45,144 nt of DNA from Escherichia phage vB_EcoS-CHD2B1. Both the position numbers and the translations under genes were made by a program. The notes beneath the pieces are model-generated. The model was not told the DNA's origin. It did no database searches and saw only the letters and a program-made list of their open reading frames with translations. Location of the stretch: sequence record MZ234026.1, one strand, 5' to 3'. This document shows, one piece after another, positions 12,787 through 23,052 of the stretch. Numbering within the stretch: the first letter of the stretch is position 1; each line of letters opens with the position of its first letter.

Positions 12787-13106
12787 ATACTACATTCGAA
12801 GCCATCGACTTCTCGGTAGCAATGACTAACCAACTATTCACCTACGACAGTAAGACCGGCGTCATCCGTCTGAAGTCTACCGGCTGCAAGATTGGCAACC
12901 TTAACACTGCCGATGGCGGTACGCGTATCGAATGCAACGGCAAGACGCTGTCTGGCGCGCGCGTGGCGTGGATTATCGAGACGGGCAATACAATCCCTCC
13001 AGGTTTCGCCGTTGTGTGCCGCCAGCGCACGCCAGGGCACTACGGCAACCGCATGAGCAACTTGTATCTGGTAGACGTAGCGCGCGACCCAAATTTTTAT
13101 GAATAA
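12783..13106 (+). CDS. HNH_3-like endonuclease family protein, possibly degenerate
   Basis: 107 aa; pattern YDSKTGVI...NGKTLSGARVAWIIETGNTIPPG...GNRMSNL resembles AP2/HNH_3 phage endonucleases but catalytic His positions are not all evident. Confidence 0.4.
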   Translation: MNTTFEAIDFSVAMTNQLFTYDSKTGVIRLKSTGCKIGNLNTADGGTRIECNGKTLSGARVAWIIETGNTIPPGFAVVCRQRTPGHYGNRMSNLYLVDVARDPNFYE

Positions 13107-13111
13107 ATTGG

Positions 13112-13140
13112 TTGCGTAATTAGATTGGTTGCATTATCTT
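13112..13140 (+). promoter_or_regulatory. Putative promoter TTGCGT-N17-TATCTT overlapping two TTGGTTGC motifs
   Basis: Motifs at 13108..13115 and 13125..13132 upstream of gene at 13187. Confidence 0.3.
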
Positions 13141-15663: not shown

Positions 15664-16239
15664 ATGTACGGCGAATACGAAATAACCGGTAAACAATTCC
15701 ACATCGCGGCAATGTTAGCAAGCGTCGAGTTTGACCAGTGGCGCTTAAAGTCTGACGCGTGCAAGCAAAGCCGTCTGGTCGGTGTGCTGGGCGAGATGTT
15801 TGCGGGCATGTACCTTGAAGGGCAGGCGGGCGGGCGTAGTTGTATCCCGCAAGGCTTGCTCATGCGTACCGGCCTGTTTAGCGCCAACACCATCGACCGC
15901 GGCGATATTATCATGGTCGGTAAACGCAAGGTTAAGTCTGGCCCCGACTTCCGTGAGCACATGATTGATGCCGTCTGGACCTACGAGGTTAAAGCCACCA
16001 GCGGCATCCGTCGCGGACTGGTAGAAGCCCGTTGCGCTCGCGAATATCTAACCCGTCGAGTTGCCGGTGTTATCCTGGTGGGCGTATCGTTCGGACAACA
16101 TAGCGCGCACGGTGTAATTGAGGATATTGCGGAGCCATACGTGATTGTGAACGATTGGCCCCTGGTGGAAGTAGAAGGCAAGGAATATTATGAGAGTCCG
16201 CTGGTGCGGCGAAAAATGGATTGGGAAAACTCAAACTAA
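15664..16239 (+). CDS. Hypothetical protein (191 aa)
   Basis: ATG with GAGGA RBS; last gene of plus-strand block. Confidence 0.5.
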   Translation: MYGEYEITGKQFHIAAMLASVEFDQWRLKSDACKQSRLVGVLGEMFAGMYLEGQAGGRSCIPQGLLMRTGLFSANTIDRGDIIMVGKRKVKSGPDFREHMIDAVWTYEVKATSGIRRGLVEARCAREYLTRRVAGVILVGVSFGQHSAHGVIEDIAEPYVIVNDWPLVEVEGKEYYESPLVRRKMDWENSN

Positions 16240-16264
16240 AAAAGGGGCCGTATGGCCCCTTCTA
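16238..16264. terminator. Bidirectional hairpin terminator AAAAAAGGGGCC gtat GGCCCCTTCT between convergent genes
   Basis: 6-bp G/C stem flanked by A-run and T-rich tract; convergent gene ends at 16239 and 16266. Confidence 0.65.
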
Positions 16265-16265
16265 A

Positions 16266-18308
16266 TTATGCTTTGGTCAGTGCCGCTACGGCAGCTTTCA
16301 ATTCCTCCAGTTCTTTCTGCATATCTTCCACTTTACGCCCCATAAAGACCATCGCGCACGCCATATCTGTTAACATGACGTTGCTGTCAAGTGCCAGCGT
16401 GTCGTCGTAGTAGTCGCCGTCTTCGGCTTTGAATCCTTCAGTCCCTACGAGGTCCGGGTTTTTAAGTGCGCCGGGGATAATCTTCACGTATTGCGGATCG
16501 ATTTTCACCAGGTCCTGCGCGATAAGGCCATAGCGCTGGATTTCCGACCCTTTATACTTAAACATTGTGGGAAGCCACTGCATCACTCGATCGTAGCTTT
16601 CTTTCCCTTCCGTGTACTTAATATCGTGCTTCAGGTCACGGTCGGACGTAGGCGCTTTGGAAAATGTGTACGCGCCGAATGTACCGCTGACCTGGATATC
16701 GCAACTGTTAACGACGAACTCGAAGTTGGTCCAGTTTTCGCCATCCCCTCGGCAGCGCAATGCCGCACGGGGCCAGTTCGCCGTGCCCTGAGAGATAAGC
16801 CCCCACGTGGCGCGGATAGGGTATCCGCCGGTTGATTGGGACCGCCAGGAGATTGCAGGAACCCAGCCGCCGTCGTTATTTCCGACGTCAGATAGCCACA
16901 CACCGCTGTCCCCGTAGTTGTTAGGCTGGTCCCAGCCGGTCTGGAAACCTTCGGCGATAAGTCGTCTGGCGGACATCTTTCCATCGGGTCTAAACCGGTA
17001 GCGCCATTCCGCCACGCCAGCATTCAGGACGTAGACCTCATAGGCTTCAAGCCCCGTCCCTCCCTGACGAATCGGCCCGGTAAACACCGCGCTATTTTGC
17101 CAGTTATACCGCGTGAATCCGGTATAGTCGTTCGGCTTTGGTGGGTTAAGCGACAGTAGCTGCACGGTGTTACTATCGACGCCGTTCAGAAGTAATTCGC
17201 CACCCTGCGCAGACGACAGGCGCTTGAATCCGTTAAAGTTACCTTCGACGTCGAGTTGATAGTAATGTGACCCCGAAGGCGTGATTACGCCGATCGTGTG
17301 CTTTCCGGTCCCTAGTTGTGTTTCTGCGTAGCTTTGCGTCGTTACCACGTCCTCACCGTTGCTATTCTTTAGCTTAGACTGGAACATTCCGCCCTGCGCC
17401 GATACGGTGTCGGGGGCTGATTTAACAGCGAGAGCACCCTTAAAAATAGGCTCGTTACCCTCCCCCAGTTCGAGGTTGGTGCGCGACGTCTGCACATCGG
17501 CAACGCCTGCAAGGTTGCCGGATTTAGTTAGCAGATTATCCGCGTTTACGCTTTGCGCCCATTCTTCGGCCTGATCGCGAAATCCCTGCGCGGCAGTGCT
17601 GGCGGCTTGCGCGTCAGTCTTCGCAGTATTGGCTTCATCGCGAATAACGCCAGTATCCGTCTTAATCTGGTCGGTCTGGTCCTTGATAGACTGCGTATCA
17701 GTCTTAATCTGGTCGGTCTGCGTCTTGATCGTATTGGTGGCGTCGTGGATTGCCTGCGTGTCAGTCTTGATTTGGTCGGTCTGCGTCTTGATGGCATTGG
17801 CATCGTTCTTGAAGCCTTCGGCCTCATTGCGCGACACCAGCGCGGCGGCTTCCGATGCGGCGGCTTGTTGTTGCAGGTCGCGCATTTCGACGGGGTCTAC
17901 TTCCTTCAACAAGGATGACAGGTAGCCCCATGACATTCCCTGCATAACTTGCCCGTTTGGCAGCGTTACCGTGACTTCTTCAGCGTCGCCGAAGATTGCA
18001 CGCCAGTTGTTTTCATCCGCGATCATCAAGCGTAGTGCTTTCTGCGCCTGGACGGTTACGCCCATCGTTGCAAGGGACATGGTATCGCGCGCCACGCTAT
18101 CCCATGCGAGGCCGGTTGCCGTTGGGCCATCGAATGGCAGCGCCAGTGTAAGCGCGGTGTCGCTCTCAATGGATGCAATAGCAATAGTGTAAGGGACTTG
18201 CCCTACTACCAGCGACAGGAAGTCGCCCGCCTTCAGCGCGGTAAGCGTTGTGCCGTCTCCAGTCACCGCGGTGCTGTTATTCGTTACGGATAGTGTACCC
18301 GCTGCCAT
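16266..18308 (-). CDS. Tail fiber protein with internal tandem repeats and C-terminal intramolecular chaperone (peptidase S74-like) domain
   Basis: ATG at 18308 with GAGGA RBS (ORF track starts at upstream TTG 18335); repeats TQTDQIKTDTQ; C-terminal SDRDLKHDI...YGLIAQDL. Confidence 0.7.
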   Translation of the reverse strand: MAAGTLSVTNNSTAVTGDGTTLTALKAGDFLSLVVGQVPYTIAIASIESDTALTLALPFDGPTATGLAWDSVARDTMSLATMGVTVQAQKALRLMIADENNWRAIFGDAEEVTVTLPNGQVMQGMSWGYLSSLLKEVDPVEMRDLQQQAAASEAAALVSRNEAEGFKNDANAIKTQTDQIKTDTQAIHDATNTIKTQTDQIKTDTQSIKDQTDQIKTDTGVIRDEANTAKTDAQAASTAAQGFRDQAEEWAQSVNADNLLTKSGNLAGVADVQTSRTNLELGEGNEPIFKGALAVKSAPDTVSAQGGMFQSKLKNSNGEDVVTTQSYAETQLGTGKHTIGVITPSGSHYYQLDVEGNFNGFKRLSSAQGGELLLNGVDSNTVQLLSLNPPKPNDYTGFTRYNWQNSAVFTGPIRQGGTGLEAYEVYVLNAGVAEWRYRFRPDGKMSARRLIAEGFQTGWDQPNNYGDSGVWLSDVGNNDGGWVPAISWRSQSTGGYPIRATWGLISQGTANWPRAALRCRGDGENWTNFEFVVNSCDIQVSGTFGAYTFSKAPTSDRDLKHDIKYTEGKESYDRVMQWLPTMFKYKGSEIQRYGLIAQDLVKIDPQYVKIIPGALKNPDLVGTEGFKAEDGDYYDDTLALDSNVMLTDMACAMVFMGRKVEDMQKELEELKAAVAALTKA
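17570..17830. repeat. Tandem ~33-bp coding repeats inside tail fiber gene
   Basis: Repeated gtcttaatctggtcggtctg / gtcttgatttggtcggtctgcgtcttgat units encoding KTDTQ-type repeats. Confidence 0.6.
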
Positions 18309-18329
18309 AGCTAAATCCTCATAAATTGG

Positions 18330-18358
18330 TTGCATTCTTGATCGAGCGGTGTAATACT
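18330..18358 (+). promoter_or_regulatory. Putative promoter TTGCAT-N17-AATACT overlapping TTGGTTGCAT motif, driving the plus-strand island
   Basis: Motif at 18326..18335; upstream of lipoprotein gene. Confidence 0.4.
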
Positions 18359-18388
18359 AAAACTCAACCAAATATAGGAGATGATAAC

Positions 18389-18610
18389 ATGAAAACTTTA
18401 ATTATGATTTGTGCTGTTCTTTTGTCCGGTTGTGCCGTAGAACGCAACAACGGTGATTGCATTACGGTGGCTTACGGAAGCTGCATGTTGCGTTATGTTG
18501 ACGGGCAAAAAGTCCCTGCCGGAGACGTGGACATGCGCTTCACTGGCCTATCTGCCGATAGCGACGGCAATTTCTCAGGTACTGTATCAGTTAAATCACG
18601 GGAGTGGTAA
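18389..18610 (+). CDS. Small lipoprotein (candidate Llp/Cor-like superinfection-exclusion protein)
   Basis: 73 aa; signal peptide with lipobox MKTLIMICAVLLSGC; AGGAGA RBS; located among tail genes on the opposite strand. Confidence 0.6.
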   Translation: MKTLIMICAVLLSGCAVERNNGDCITVAYGSCMLRYVDGQKVPAGDVDMRFTGLSADSDGNFSGTVSVKSREW

Positions 18611-18612
18611 TA

Positions 18613-19578
18613 ATGGGTGCTGGAATACTTATCGACTACAACGACGGTAGACCTGTCATGGAGATAACCGCGGGCCTTCGCGCTCCGTCGTTCTGCACTA
18701 CCTTTAATCAGCGCTGTCAGTCTGACAAGACGCTGACCATTAACACACCGCTGACACCGGGGTCCGAACTGGTCGTTGCCCTAACTAATCCGGTAGAAGT
18801 GATGGAAGTATTCGACCAGACCCTGGTCTTGCCAGACCCGTTTTATGTGACGTCGATACAACGTAACGGGGATGGCGGAATCACCTTGCGCGGTGAGGAT
18901 GCCTATAACGCATACAGCGGGCTTCCAACATGGGGCGGGGTGATTATGGAAGTGCTGCCGGTTGGGTCACGCAATGCGGGCTTACTGGTAGCTAACTCAA
19001 CGGACTTCACCGCAATATCCAACGTCGCACGGCTAATGACCTGCCGATATGCGCAGCGCGTGCATGTAAACGGAAGTATGCCGCTACCCGTCGGCGGTGT
19101 CCCGTTCGCTCGCTGGGACGACGGCAACGTATCGGTTGGCTTCGATGGCGGAAGTATTATCGTCCGTAATGCGTCCTATGGCGGGATTGACGACGTAGGC
19201 GCTGCCGTCGACATGGACCTGGTTATATTCAACAATACGCCGCCATCACCGGGGACCGGTATCACCATGACTAACAACCAGGGGCAGGTCACGTTCTCGA
19301 CGGTAAACAAGCCGTTTGTCTACGACCGCACGATTAATATCGGTGGCGGCGACCAGCACATCGGTAATAGTCTGATCCAGCTTTCATATACCGGTGCGCT
19401 CATTGAGAACAACAGCGGCTATAACCATGTGCGCATGAACGGGATACGAATGGCGGGTAATAATGTGCGCATCGCCAAAAACCGCGTTATTGGCAACTAC
19501 TCACGGCAGCAATTCCAAATGCCGGGCAAAAATATTGCCGTACCCACCCCGCTACTAGTCATCCCTAACATCTATTAA
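18613..19578 (+). CDS. Hypothetical 321-aa protein co-transcribed with the lipoprotein (candidate receptor-binding or tail-associated protein)
   Basis: ATG at 18613 right after the lipoprotein stop; Gly/Asn/Thr-rich; function not recognisable from sequence. Confidence 0.5.
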   Translation: MGAGILIDYNDGRPVMEITAGLRAPSFCTTFNQRCQSDKTLTINTPLTPGSELVVALTNPVEVMEVFDQTLVLPDPFYVTSIQRNGDGGITLRGEDAYNAYSGLPTWGGVIMEVLPVGSRNAGLLVANSTDFTAISNVARLMTCRYAQRVHVNGSMPLPVGGVPFARWDDGNVSVGFDGGSIIVRNASYGGIDDVGAAVDMDLVIFNNTPPSPGTGITMTNNQGQVTFSTVNKPFVYDRTINIGGGDQHIGNSLIQLSYTGALIENNSGYNHVRMNGIRMAGNNVRIAKNRVIGNYSRQQFQMPGKNIAVPTPLLVIPNIY

Positions 19579-19603
19579 AAAAGGGGCCGGATGGCCCCTT
19601 CTC
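19576..19603. terminator. Bidirectional hairpin terminator AAAAAAGGGGCC ggat GGCCCCTTCT (near-identical to 16238..16264)
   Basis: Between convergent gene ends at 19578 and 19606. Confidence 0.65.
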
Positions 19604-19605
19604 AT

Positions 19606-22600
19606 TTACCACGTCCCAACTTTCACCCTGCCCCCGCCAGGTAATGGCACGTTAACGCCCGTTGCGTCGATCTGTACCGACCCGCCGGAGAATCCAAAGT
19701 TACCCGTAGTTGCGAACAGATTGCCGCGTACCGTAACGTTGTTGAACTCCGCCCCGCCATCCTTCGCGATACGCCAGCCGCTGTTACCCGGATTCCAGTT
19801 ATTGGATTGCAGCGTGTCCGTGATCTGCGCGAAGTTAATGGACGCGTTCTTGATGCGTGCTGTGTCGATGTACACCTGACCGCCGTCAACGATAAACGCG
19901 GAGGTGAGCGTACCATTCGACGGGTGCATGATGTAGAACTGGTCCGCCTTGAACGCGATGCGTGATTTAACCGCGCCACCTTCCGCCACGACGGAAAGCT
20001 GCATACCGGCATCATAGTAAGTCCCGTTATACGTCACGCCAGCCTTAAGGCTGTATGTGGCGCTACCGCCAGCATGGTTAAACGAGGACGTCATCTTCTG
20101 CTCGATAGCTGCGGACTGCTGACCGAACTGTGCCGCGACCTGGGTCTTATACTCCGCCAGCGCGCCCGCTACGTCTGCCGTTGCCGTTTGTACCTGCTGG
20201 ATGGCAGCTTCCTGCTCCCCGAACTTAGCGGCAACAGTTTGTTGGTACTGGGCGAACGCCTGTTCATGCGTGCTTTGCGCGGTCTGCAACGTGTGGATTG
20301 ACGCTTCGGCGTCGTCAAGGCGCGTGCCGATTAACGTTTCCAGTTGCGCTACGGCTTCGTGAGCGTCCGCCGCCACGTTATACGCCACCGTAATTTCTGC
20401 ATAAATCCCTTTATACTCGGCGCGGGCGTTGAATAACTGCTGGGCGTCCGTAAGCATTGACTCATAGATGCCTTGCGGAATGGTGTCGATTGCTTCCTGG
20501 AAGTGTTTACCGTCCTCGGAAGTCAAGAACTCGTCATCAAGCCCCTGCATGTACTCGTCAACTTTGTCACTCACCTGCCCGTCGAACGGATCGGACCAGT
20601 CTGACAGGTTGCCGATTTTATCCGCTACACGTGCGCGCAACTGCTGGTAGATCCCGAACTCCAGCGACGTTTGCGCATAGTCCGACCCCGGATATGGGAC
20701 GTTGGTTAGGAATTTCCATTCCGTTTCGCCCAGCTTGCGTACTTCAAGCTCTGTATACGAAATATCCGTTGCGGCGTTGTTGTGATTCCACTTCCACAAA
20801 ATTTGATGAAGGCCCGAAATCGCGTTGGTGATGATAGGCGCGTTAAGCCCACCAAGACGACCTTCCACCGGCGTGATGGCGGATGACACCCACGGGGATG
20901 AAATCTCGCCCATACCGATAGCACGGACGCGTGCCTGGTAGTTACCCGAAAACACGTTCGGGATGTGCGCGCCGTTCGACGCCGTGCGGGGAATGTTCAC
21001 CCAGTCGTTTCCCCACTGGATTTCCAGATTCTGCAAGCTGGTACGTCGCCACTGGATTTCGTACACAACGGCATCCTTCACCGGCGGAAAAACAATATCC
21101 ACGTTAGTGATTAGCTGGCCTTGTGATGAAATCTGCGACGGGGTGATGGTAACGGATTCTGGCCCCTTCATTACGCCGTCCGGCACTTGCGTGAAGATGC
21201 CCGGATCAAGACGCGCGCCATTATCAACGGCATCATATTTGCTATCGTTATATTCAATCCCGCGCACCGAGAAAGTGCTGGTAGCGTCGTCATATTCCAG
21301 GTCGGTGATGCGGAACTTCTGCAACTGGATATCATCGCCATCAACGCAAAACGGCTGATCAGGAATCGGGTCGGCGTCCAGTGCGGTTTTTAGCGTGACC
21401 TGGTTGCCGTTGACGCTGGCAATCTCGCGAGTCTCCACATTACCGCTATCGGTGCGCACCAGGAATTTATCGCCAGGGCGGAACGTGATTTCGCTGTCCG
21501 TGTTCAGCACGGTGCGCGTGCCCGGATCTGACAACAGACGTCCGCCGCGTGTCTCGAAGCCGCCAGAAATGTTAGTATCTGCGATCGCGACTACGCTCCC
21601 CGGAATAAAGAATAACCCCTCCATGCCAACCTTAAAGCTAACTTGCTGATCAAGCTGGTTGGAGATTAGCGCCCAGTGTCCGCGGCGTTGCGCTTCAGAT
21701 TCACGCGTACAGCCGATCGCCGTAATATCAAGGCGGTTAATCTTATGGCGGCGCACCAGTTCGACACGCTGGCCAGTTGCGATGGCGTCCTCGTAATGGT
21801 TTTTCGGGTTGCCGTAGGCTACCGAGAACGTGGAATACCGAGTTTTCTGGCTTCCCGATGCGTAGTCGAATCGACCATCAATAACCGAGGCGTTGGTGAT
21901 AGTATGCGATACCGCTGCGACCGGCTGGTCACTGACAATATTCAGCATCTGGTTGCCCCACCAGGTCATCCCAGCAAAGATAGCCGCTAAATCCTTCAGC
22001 ACGGTCCAGGCGTCGGTCTGCGATTGAATGTACATATCATTCTTAAATCGGATTTCCTGACCGCCGTTGCCGTCACTGACCATCTGGTCGCAGCGCTGCG
22101 CAATCTGGTAGAGTGCGTAACGGTTTAGCATTTGTGGCTTGACACGACGACCGAGGCCGAAGCGCTCAGTAATACAAATATCGTACCAGTGCCACGCAGG
22201 ATTATCCGTCCAGGCGCGTTTAAATGTACCGTCCCAGTTACCAGAATAGGTATGATTCACGGGGTCATAGTTGTTCGGGACCAGCACTTTGCGGCCTTTG
22301 CACTTGATTGACACGCGCGGGATGTTCTGGAAAGCCTTAGCGTCGAACTCCACGAACAACAGCGCGGTTAGCGGGTAACGCAGGCGGGCGTCGATAATCT
22401 CAGTAATGGATTGTACCTGGATATCGTTGACCACTTTCGCCGATGTGGAGTCTGCCGTTGTGCGGATCACCTCCACGCGCCAGCCGGTGTTAACGTTCGA
22501 CGGTAGTTCGATGCGGTGGTCGCGCTCATACAGCGACATTGTTTTACCAACGGCAGCGAATGTAAACTCGCGCGGATCAGCATTATCGGTATACACAACG

Positions 22601-23052
22601 ATTTTATAGTCGATGCGCCCGCCCACCAGGTCGCCATTATCTTCGTTAGTGTACAGGGCCGGAATACCGATTCGAATGCGCACCGCGTCAAGACTGGTGT
22701 CCGAAATCTGGCGGACCCACGGCTGTCCCTGTTCCAGTTTTACACCTACGGACTGCTCGCTTTCCACCGCGGAAAATCCGTGGATTACATCCTGGTGCTG
22801 CGTGCCGGGGCGGAACTCCACGCGCGCGCCGGGGAAGTTATCCGACAGGTCGGCGTTCTGGATCGGTGTGCCGTCCAGGTAGACACGCTGCCGTAATTCG
22901 TTAGGGTCGGGAATGCCTTCAAATTCGCCCTCGCCCAGTGCGAGCAAGATGCGGATTTTAGCCAGCGAATGCAGGCTATCAGGCGTCTCCTGTGGGGTGT
23001 GCTGTTTGCCACCGCCGCCTTTATGGCCCGTGACGTCGTATACAATCGTCAT
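19606..23052 (-). CDS. Tail tip / host specificity protein (lambda J-like central tail fiber)
   Basis: 1148 aa; NYDPVNHTYSGNWDGTFKRAWTDNPAWHWYDI matches the conserved lambda J region NYNPQTRQYSGIWDGTFKPAYSNNMAWCLWDM. Confidence 0.85.
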   Translation of the reverse strand: MTIVYDVTGHKGGGGKQHTPQETPDSLHSLAKIRILLALGEGEFEGIPDPNELRQRVYLDGTPIQNADLSDNFPGARVEFRPGTQHQDVIHGFSAVESEQSVGVKLEQGQPWVRQISDTSLDAVRIRIGIPALYTNEDNGDLVGGRIDYKIVVYTDNADPREFTFAAVGKTMSLYERDHRIELPSNVNTGWRVEVIRTTADSTSAKVVNDIQVQSITEIIDARLRYPLTALLFVEFDAKAFQNIPRVSIKCKGRKVLVPNNYDPVNHTYSGNWDGTFKRAWTDNPAWHWYDICITERFGLGRRVKPQMLNRYALYQIAQRCDQMVSDGNGGQEIRFKNDMYIQSQTDAWTVLKDLAAIFAGMTWWGNQMLNIVSDQPVAAVSHTITNASVIDGRFDYASGSQKTRYSTFSVAYGNPKNHYEDAIATGQRVELVRRHKINRLDITAIGCTRESEAQRRGHWALISNQLDQQVSFKVGMEGLFFIPGSVVAIADTNISGGFETRGGRLLSDPGTRTVLNTDSEITFRPGDKFLVRTDSGNVETREIASVNGNQVTLKTALDADPIPDQPFCVDGDDIQLQKFRITDLEYDDATSTFSVRGIEYNDSKYDAVDNGARLDPGIFTQVPDGVMKGPESVTITPSQISSQGQLITNVDIVFPPVKDAVVYEIQWRRTSLQNLEIQWGNDWVNIPRTASNGAHIPNVFSGNYQARVRAIGMGEISSPWVSSAITPVEGRLGGLNAPIITNAISGLHQILWKWNHNNAATDISYTELEVRKLGETEWKFLTNVPYPGSDYAQTSLEFGIYQQLRARVADKIGNLSDWSDPFDGQVSDKVDEYMQGLDDEFLTSEDGKHFQEAIDTIPQGIYESMLTDAQQLFNARAEYKGIYAEITVAYNVAADAHEAVAQLETLIGTRLDDAEASIHTLQTAQSTHEQAFAQYQQTVAAKFGEQEAAIQQVQTATADVAGALAEYKTQVAAQFGQQSAAIEQKMTSSFNHAGGSATYSLKAGVTYNGTYYDAGMQLSVVAEGGAVKSRIAFKADQFYIMHPSNGTLTSAFIVDGGQVYIDTARIKNASINFAQITDTLQSNNWNPGNSGWRIAKDGGAEFNNVTVRGNLFATTGNFGFSGGSVQIDATGVNVPLPGGGRVKVGTW

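Follow-up and report, generated by a model that had tools for sequence, protein, structure and literature searches.

What do two plus-strand genes do between two minus-strand tail genes of Escherichia phage vB_EcoS-CHD2B1, and to which host receptor do they relate? The window analysed here, the whole stretch of 45,144 nucleotides in sequence record MZ234026.1, is by its ORF map a complete ~45-kb Dhillonvirus genome, in which no tRNA genes were found. An initial annotation, made from the letters alone, had described a two-gene plus-strand unit between a tail-fibre gene and a J-like gene, and the ORF map confirmed it. On one side lies the lateral tail-fibre gene (16266..18335, minus strand), whose product has a C-terminal intramolecular chaperone domain (Pfam Peptidase_S74, PHROG 1980). 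On the other lies the gene for the J-like protein, a central tail-fibre or tail-tip protein (19606..23052, minus strand), with matches to Pfam FNIII-A_GpJ, Phage-tail_3 and Phage_Tail_Tip and to PHROG 31 (central tail fiber J). Antisense to both are the ORFs of a 73-residue lipoprotein (18389..18610, plus strand) and of a 321-residue protein (18613..19578, plus strand). The lipoprotein stop codon is followed after 2 nt by the ATG of the second gene at 18613. The second gene and J are convergent, its end lying 27 nt from the J stop codon, and the same arrangement is found in the phages Oekolampad, vB_EcoS_WFI, Rtp and SA126VB.

The region is common among sequenced dhillonviruses. In a megablast search of GenBank phages, positions 16200..19650 matched vB_EcoS-22664B1 with 99.2% identity over 100% of the query and vB_EcoS_WFI with 97% identity, and about 150 more Dhillonvirus records gave matches. 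At the locus, Bas83 and Bas85 match with 93% nucleotide identity. The part of the lateral tail fibre that varies among dhillonviruses, as seen by megablast, is its C-terminal two thirds.

Immediately downstream of gpJ, Drexlerviridae, Dhillonvirus, Nonagvirus and Seuratvirus share "bona fide RBP loci", and the alleles of these receptor-binding protein (RBP) loci agree with the terminal receptor in every case (Maffei et al. 2021, PMC8594841). The receptor of Oekolampad and TheodorHerzl is LptD (PMC8594841). The evidence set out below makes it very probable that the two genes form the LptD allele of this receptor-specificity locus, one encoding a receptor-binding protein and the other its cognate exclusion lipoprotein. 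A system of nearly the same sequence has been characterised both structurally and genetically, and in that sense the locus is already known.

The 321-residue protein and the tip of J

The 321-residue protein had been thought to have no recognisable domain, which proved wrong. The HMM search that the initial annotation had proposed gave a match to Pfam DUF6453 at 8e-119 (396.7 bits; cut-off 25), and PHROG 1265 was matched at 9e-118. Among PDB sequences a single entry group was found, chain C of 9RPT, 9RPW and 9RQI (E 1.8e-192, residues 1-321), which is the receptor-binding protein of Oekolampad (Bas18). Alignment with this protein, RBP_Oeko (bas18_0025), showed identity at 286 of 321 positions (89%) over the full length, and alignment with Rtp44 showed 33% identity over 100% of the query. 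Both values lie within the published threshold for the family of LptD receptor-binding proteins, >30% identity at >99% coverage (bioRxiv 10.64898/2026.04.02.716166). An identical copy of the 321-residue sequence is already in GenBank. A literature search for "DUF6453" returned only one incidental annotation, in a genome paper.

The Oekolampad protein has been seen by cryo-EM on the open LptDE lipopolysaccharide translocon (PDB 9RPT; Dunbar et al., PMC12685063). It sits on the extracellular face with an interface of ~1,700 square angstroms and contacts extracellular loops EL3-5 and EL11, and LptD point mutations that confer resistance abolish its binding (PMC12685063). Gln299, the sole RBP contact residue named in the text of that paper (PMC12685063), is kept in the 321-residue protein, a comparison of one residue. 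By homology, the protein would be the terminal receptor-binding protein, which binds open LptDE from its place at the C-terminal end of the J-like fibre. The earlier suggestion that it could be a receptor-binding protein is thus supported by its 89% identity to the LptDE-bound RBP_Oeko. The companion suggestion of a novel exclusion factor found no support.

The label of PHROG 1265, [quoted passage not shown], would fit a non-structural product, either a membrane protein or moron or an exclusion factor, leaving the C-terminus of J as the true receptor binder. The position of the gene, antisense to the tail operon and behind a promoter common with the exclusion gene, would fit the same reading. 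Against it stands the 89%-identical homologue, which binds the extracellular face of LptDE and loses that binding in the LptD point mutants that block infection. The antisense layout is common to the LptD allele in Oekolampad, vB_EcoS_WFI, Rtp and SA126VB, and SPN3UB, a temperate Salmonella phage, is an exception to it; there the DUF6453 gene lies immediately downstream of J and is co-directional with it, which also argues against a non-structural product. SPN3UB has no annotated lipoprotein at its DUF6453 locus. A non-structural role for the 321-residue protein is judged highly improbable, and it is treated as a receptor-binding protein (RBP) from here on.

The C-terminal end of J agrees with this assignment. 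Its last 300 residues are 90% identical to those of the J protein of Oekolampad, which has the LptD allele, and the similarity runs to the very end. With J of Envy, a phage of the FhuA allele, homology is lost at about residue 1099 of 1148, so that the last ~49 residues fall outside it. By these alignments, J has the C-terminal end typical of the LptD allele. GpJ proteins have receptor-specific C-terminal segments (bioRxiv 10.64898/2026.04.02.716166), and the allele-specific final ~49 codons of J (19606..19755, minus strand) are probably the docking site for the RBP.

The agreement with Oekolampad is not complete, and the differences raise the question of whether the same RBP and exclusion module serves a receptor need that has shifted or been extended, to other LptD loops, to the orthologue of another host, or to a second receptor contacted through the J tip. 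There are 35 amino-acid substitutions relative to RBP_Oeko, concentrated in the N-terminal third (19 of the 35 in residues 1-110), and several of the final ~60 J residues differ from those of Oekolampad. Small siphoviruses with dual receptors exist, for example Bas01 with NupG and LptD (bioRxiv 10.64898/2026.04.02.716166). On the other side, 89% identity far exceeds the >30% threshold that tracks LptD specificity, the lipoprotein, which has to suit one and the same receptor, shares 99% identity with that of Oekolampad, and at the C-terminus of J there is 90% identity to Oekolampad, a phage that uses LptD only. Such a change of receptor need is therefore considered improbable. Comparison of the RBP gene with that of Oekolampad showed 111 synonymous and 35 non-synonymous codon differences, which indicates purifying selection.

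Taken from its homologues, the terminal receptor of vB_EcoS-CHD2B1 is predicted to be LptD. FhuA, BtuB and LamB, the receptors named in the initial annotation, were the wrong candidates, as the homologues point to LptD. The same prediction of LptD has been made for new dhillonviruses with the same allele (Humolli et al. 2025, PMC11990801).

The lipoprotein and the exchange of receptor alleles

The first gene of the island starts with an ATG at 18389, 8 nt downstream of an AGGAG Shine-Dalgarno sequence, and encodes 73 residues beginning MKTLIMICAVLLSGC. As read from the sequence, codons 1-15 (18389..18433) specify a signal peptide and the lipobox LSGC with Cys15. The Sec/SPII signal peptide, MKTLIMICAVLL-SGC15, is followed by Ala16 at position +2, which is compatible with outer-membrane sorting. 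Under the Lol pathway rule, lipoproteins without Asp at +2 are sorted to the outer membrane. The call of a 73-residue lipoprotein with a lipobox is thereby confirmed.

In the Pfam search the lipoprotein was assigned to PF24052 (Phage_lipoprotein) at 3.6e-21 (75.4 bits; cut-off 27). It is identical to SE_Oeko of Oekolampad (bas18_0026) at 72 of 73 positions (99%), and BLASTP gave 36% identity to Rtp45 (E 5e-13). The PDB sequence search returned chain D of 9RPS, which is Rtp45 (E 2.1e-8), and Cys24 and Cys32 of the lipoprotein align with the Rtp45 pair Cys30 and Cys38, which forms a disulfide (PMC12685063). These matches place it in the Rtp45 family (Pfam PF24052). Compared with Oekolampad the gene has 19 synonymous codon differences and 1 non-synonymous difference, again a sign of purifying selection. 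The idea of an exclusion lipoprotein encoded beside a receptor-binding protein gains support from the identity to SE_Oeko, the homology to Rtp45 and the RBP_Oeko-like neighbour.

The function is modelled on Rtp45, which was solved on the periplasmic side of LptDE (PDB 9RPS) and shifts EL4 by up to 20 angstroms, so that docking of the RBP is prevented (PMC12685063). Dunbar et al. did not succeed in expressing SE_Oeko (PMC12685063). At 35-36% identity to Rtp45, the exclusion activity and binding mode of the present lipoprotein are extrapolated by analogy. After export it would receive its lipid at Cys15 and be carried to the outer membrane's inner leaflet. From the periplasm it would bind LptDE and push extracellular loop 4 outwards, and RBP docking would therefore be blocked. 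Such a block would shield the infected cell from superinfection and would spare progeny from loss on debris.

The lipoprotein had been likened in the initial annotation to the Cor and Llp families; it belongs to the Rtp45 family instead. Homology to T5 Llp was rejected, as no Llp family or PDB chain was found among the Pfam, PHROG and PDB matches. The case of Cor is more instructive. There is a weak match to PHROG 1119 (Cor) with E 6.4e-4, and in Envy, a FhuA-dependent dhillonvirus, the same slot holds cor (gp20) on the plus strand together with two smaller genes (gp21 and gp22) on the J strand. These two facts would favour a blocker of the Cor or Llp type, aimed at FhuA or another TonB-dependent transporter. 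The PHROG match is limited to residues 1-30, and the DNA alignment with Envy explains why. The two phages are near-identical from the 5' end of the tail-fibre gene across the putative promoter and 5' UTR to the signal peptide MKTLIMICAVLLSGCA, and directly after the lipobox codon, at ~18436, the DNA diverges completely. The weak Cor match therefore comes from a signal peptide that is common to Envy cor. The mature part diverges from Envy cor, falls in PF24052 and aligns with Rtp45. Membership in the Cor family was rejected on these grounds, and a blocker of the type just described is left with next to no probability. The assignment to the Rtp45 family is retained.

The left breakpoint after the lipobox means that the promoter, the 5' UTR and the signal peptide are common to Cor-type (FhuA) and Rtp45-type (LptD) genes. 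Together with the breakpoint at about residue 1099 of J, it delimits an exchangeable host-range module of roughly 18437..19755. The ~100-bp block on its left may, as a speculation, be kept constant since it also holds the candidate divergent promoter of the tail-fibre gene.

A wider proposal is that the LptD module is a portable cassette exchanged by recombination at fixed joints, its three parts being the ~49-residue end of J, the DUF6453 RBP and the lipoprotein without its signal peptide, and that Kuravirus podoviruses have these parts too, in the form of a tail needle with a tail-tip domain, a DUF6453 protein and an early Rtp45-like lipoprotein, LptD being their unrecognised terminal receptor. 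This proposal is tentative, possible rather than probable. Sequence resemblance suggests that Kuravirus podoviruses may also engage LptD, and a literature search for a link between Kuravirus and LptD found none. If true, LptD targeting would extend to podoviruses whose terminal receptor is now held to be LPS core.

Putative promoters and hairpins around the island

The initial annotation had assigned the island a promoter-like site of its own. A putative promoter is indeed present and conserved, though weak and below the threshold of the consensus scan, which found no plus-strand promoter upstream of the lipoprotein gene. It was recognised by eye at 18330..18358 (plus strand), is supported by conservation, and consists of TTGCAT (18330-18335), a 17-nt spacer, and TG-n followed by AATACT (18353-18358). 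Its -35 element overlaps the start codon of the tail-fibre gene. The elements are kept in Oekolampad, vB_EcoS_WFI and the FhuA-allele phage Envy, and the adjacent spacer bases vary. The operon is probably driven by a weak extended -10 promoter. The lipoprotein and RBP genes probably form a single transcript antisense to the tail genes, and they would constitute one translationally coupled operon.

A candidate promoter for the lateral tail-fibre gene was found on the opposite strand at 18401..18428 (minus strand; CGGACA, 16 nt, CATAAT), where the consensus scan counted 9 of 12 matches. It sits within the signal-peptide codons of the lipoprotein gene, in the block that is conserved across receptor alleles, and it would be a weak promoter.

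The island had also been described as bracketed by near-identical twin hairpins acting as bidirectional terminators. Both hairpins exist. The left stem-loop (AAAAAAGGGGCCGTATGGCCCCTTCT, 16240..16263) was detected by terminator scan, folding and pattern search and is present in vB_EcoS_WFI, Oekolampad and Envy. The right one (AAAAAAGGGGCCGGATGGCCCCTTCT, 19579..19602), which differs by one loop base, was missed by the terminator scan and seen by folding and pattern search; it is present in Oekolampad. Both are annotated as terminators in the vB_EcoS_WFI record. The scan probably missed the right hairpin because A-U and G-U pairs lengthen the stem at the expense of the T-run. Folding energies range from -15.7 to -18.9 kcal/mol (z -3.3 to -5.1), and the pattern search found the motif at these two sites only in the whole window, with 0 expected from 100 shuffles.

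The bracketing was less exact than described. Between the left hairpin and the island stands the whole 2-kb tail-fibre gene, and therefore the twins bracket the tail-fibre gene and the island together, not the island alone. The left hairpin also closes the plus-strand early gene block. The bidirectional character held for one direction. A T-run 3' of the stem is found on the minus strand only (TTTTTTAG and TTTTTTAA), and the tails read in the plus direction (CTAATTATG and CTCATTTAC) are poor in U. Both hairpins are thus canonical terminators for the minus strand only, the left for the tail-fibre transcript and the right for the J transcript. What stands at the end of the plus-strand RBP gene is a U-poor hairpin.

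Relation to known systems

Two genes that would be annotated as "hypothetical" or "membrane protein" can instead be called an LptD-binding RBP and the exclusion lipoprotein that goes with it, and the terminal receptor of vB_EcoS-CHD2B1 becomes predictable as LptD, an essential and conserved protein. The additions to the published biology are mildly useful: the allele breakpoints at the lipobox codon and at residue ~1099 of J, the hairpins as minus-strand terminators, and the Kuravirus lead.

Relatives of both proteins are found outside the siphoviruses. In tblastn searches both also matched phiEco32-like podoviruses (Gordonclarkvirinae). The tail needle of SU10, gp18, has the Phage_Tail_Tip domain that occurs in the C-terminal part of J, and the next gene, gp19, encodes a DUF6453 protein (83.5 bits). 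gp19 is unassigned in the SU10 virion structure and has no mention in the main text or the consulted supplements of the SU10 structure paper; gp20-24 are the ejection proteins. In phiEco32, the product of phi32_106, one of the small early genes, matches PF24052 strongly as a lipoprotein (124 bits); with Rtp45 it shares 43% identity and both cysteines.

The closest known system is that of Oekolampad (Bas18), a member of the same genus, Dhillonvirus. There the locus likewise lies between J and the lateral tail fibre, with the same gene order, orientation and twin hairpins, and the two phages are 89% identical in the RBP, 99% in the lipoprotein and 90% in the J C-terminus. They differ by the 35 RBP substitutions and in the C-terminal part of the lateral tail fibre. 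Because of this difference in the tail fibre, the primary glycan receptor and the host range probably differ.

Rtp belongs to another phage family, Drexlerviridae. Its RBP (rtp44) and lipoprotein (rtp45) share the families DUF6453 and PF24052 and the cysteine pair, and the operon likewise has the lipoprotein gene followed by the RBP gene, antisense to the J homologue rtp43. It differs in the lower identity (33% for the RBP, 36% for the lipoprotein), in ORFs that abut with one shared base, and in a lateral tail fibre that does not adjoin the locus.

The FhuA allele, with Cor (phi80, T1 and N15; Envy among dhillonviruses), has the same position and shares the promoter, 5' UTR and signal peptide. 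Envy differs in its unrelated mature lipoprotein, in the last ~49 J residues, and in its RBP and accessory genes, which are two smaller ORFs on the strand of J instead of the DUF6453 gene that follows the lipoprotein gene in vB_EcoS-CHD2B1.

T5, with pb5 (oad) and Llp, offers the more distant parallel. There too the central fibre carries a monomeric RBP at its tip, and the adjacent gene encodes a small outer-membrane lipoprotein, facing the periplasm, by which extracellular loops of the receptor are remodelled. In T5 the pb5 and Llp genes are divergent and are not co-transcribed. No sequence homology to the T5 proteins was detected, and the T5 receptor, FhuA, is a TonB-dependent transporter. 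The two lipoproteins also reach their end by different means, Llp by long-range allostery and Rtp45 by physical displacement of EL4 (PMC12685063).

Allele boundaries in the lipoprotein and J genes

The promoter region, the 5' UTR and the signal peptide of the lipoprotein gene are common to the LptD allele, which encodes an Rtp45-like protein, and the FhuA allele, which encodes Cor. Comparison of window 18336..18436 with 13002..13112 of Envy (L008), a FhuA-type dhillonvirus, showed that the two part exactly 3' of the lipobox codon, placing the allele breakpoint within the lipoprotein gene. The signal peptide region in common with Envy cor also accounts for the weak, spurious Cor match of the window lipoprotein. 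In the J-like protein, the final ~49 residues (~1100-1148; window 19606..19755) co-vary with the allele of the DUF6453 receptor-binding protein (RBP); they are kept in the LptD-allele phage Oekolampad and are unrelated in Envy. This pattern fits a candidate docking site for the RBP.

The lateral tail-fibre gene

In nucleotide comparison, the match of most related dhillonviruses begins only at about window 17500. The lateral tail fibre therefore appears to hold a second, independently exchanged host-range segment, made up of its C-terminal two thirds (16266..17500), with the left twin hairpin as the far-side boundary of the segment. A candidate sigma-70 promoter for the tail-fibre gene (CGGACA, 16 nt, CATAAT) lies at 18401..18428 on the minus strand, within the signal-peptide codons of the lipoprotein gene. 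The terminator at 19602..19579 should end the J transcript, so that the tail-fibre gene is expected to need its own promoter. Together with the putative lipoprotein promoter, the candidate would form a back-to-back divergent promoter block.

The module in other phages

Seven records labeled as Campylobacter jejuni phages, e.g. "Campylobacter phage A121" (MG065670.1), match the window module, with 61% identity in the RBP and 59% in the lipoprotein. The label is an odd host for an E. coli-type, LptD-loop-specific module.

The window's gene arrangement is not universal. In the temperate Salmonella phage SPN3UB, the DUF6453 gene (L004:4501-5460) lies immediately downstream of J and in the same direction, whereas the window's RBP gene is antisense to J; no lipoprotein is annotated beside it in the record. 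The Seuratvirus SA126VB has an antisense RBP gene (L005:4501-5466) as in the window, but without the upstream lipoprotein gene.

The three parts found in LptD-targeting siphoviruses are also present in Kuravirus/Gordonclarkvirinae podoviruses, where one of the loci noted is Bas93_0018 (L006:5647-6666); a literature search found no paper tying these phages to LptD. In SU10 (L009:11089-13090), the tail needle, gp18, carries the Phage_Tail_Tip domain and its gene is directly followed by the DUF6453 gene, gp19, which has no assignment in the SU10 virion structure paper. The Rtp45-like lipoprotein gene is placed among the early genes, as with phi32_106 of phiEco32 (L007:2968-3249), whose product is 43% identical to Rtp45 with both Cys kept.
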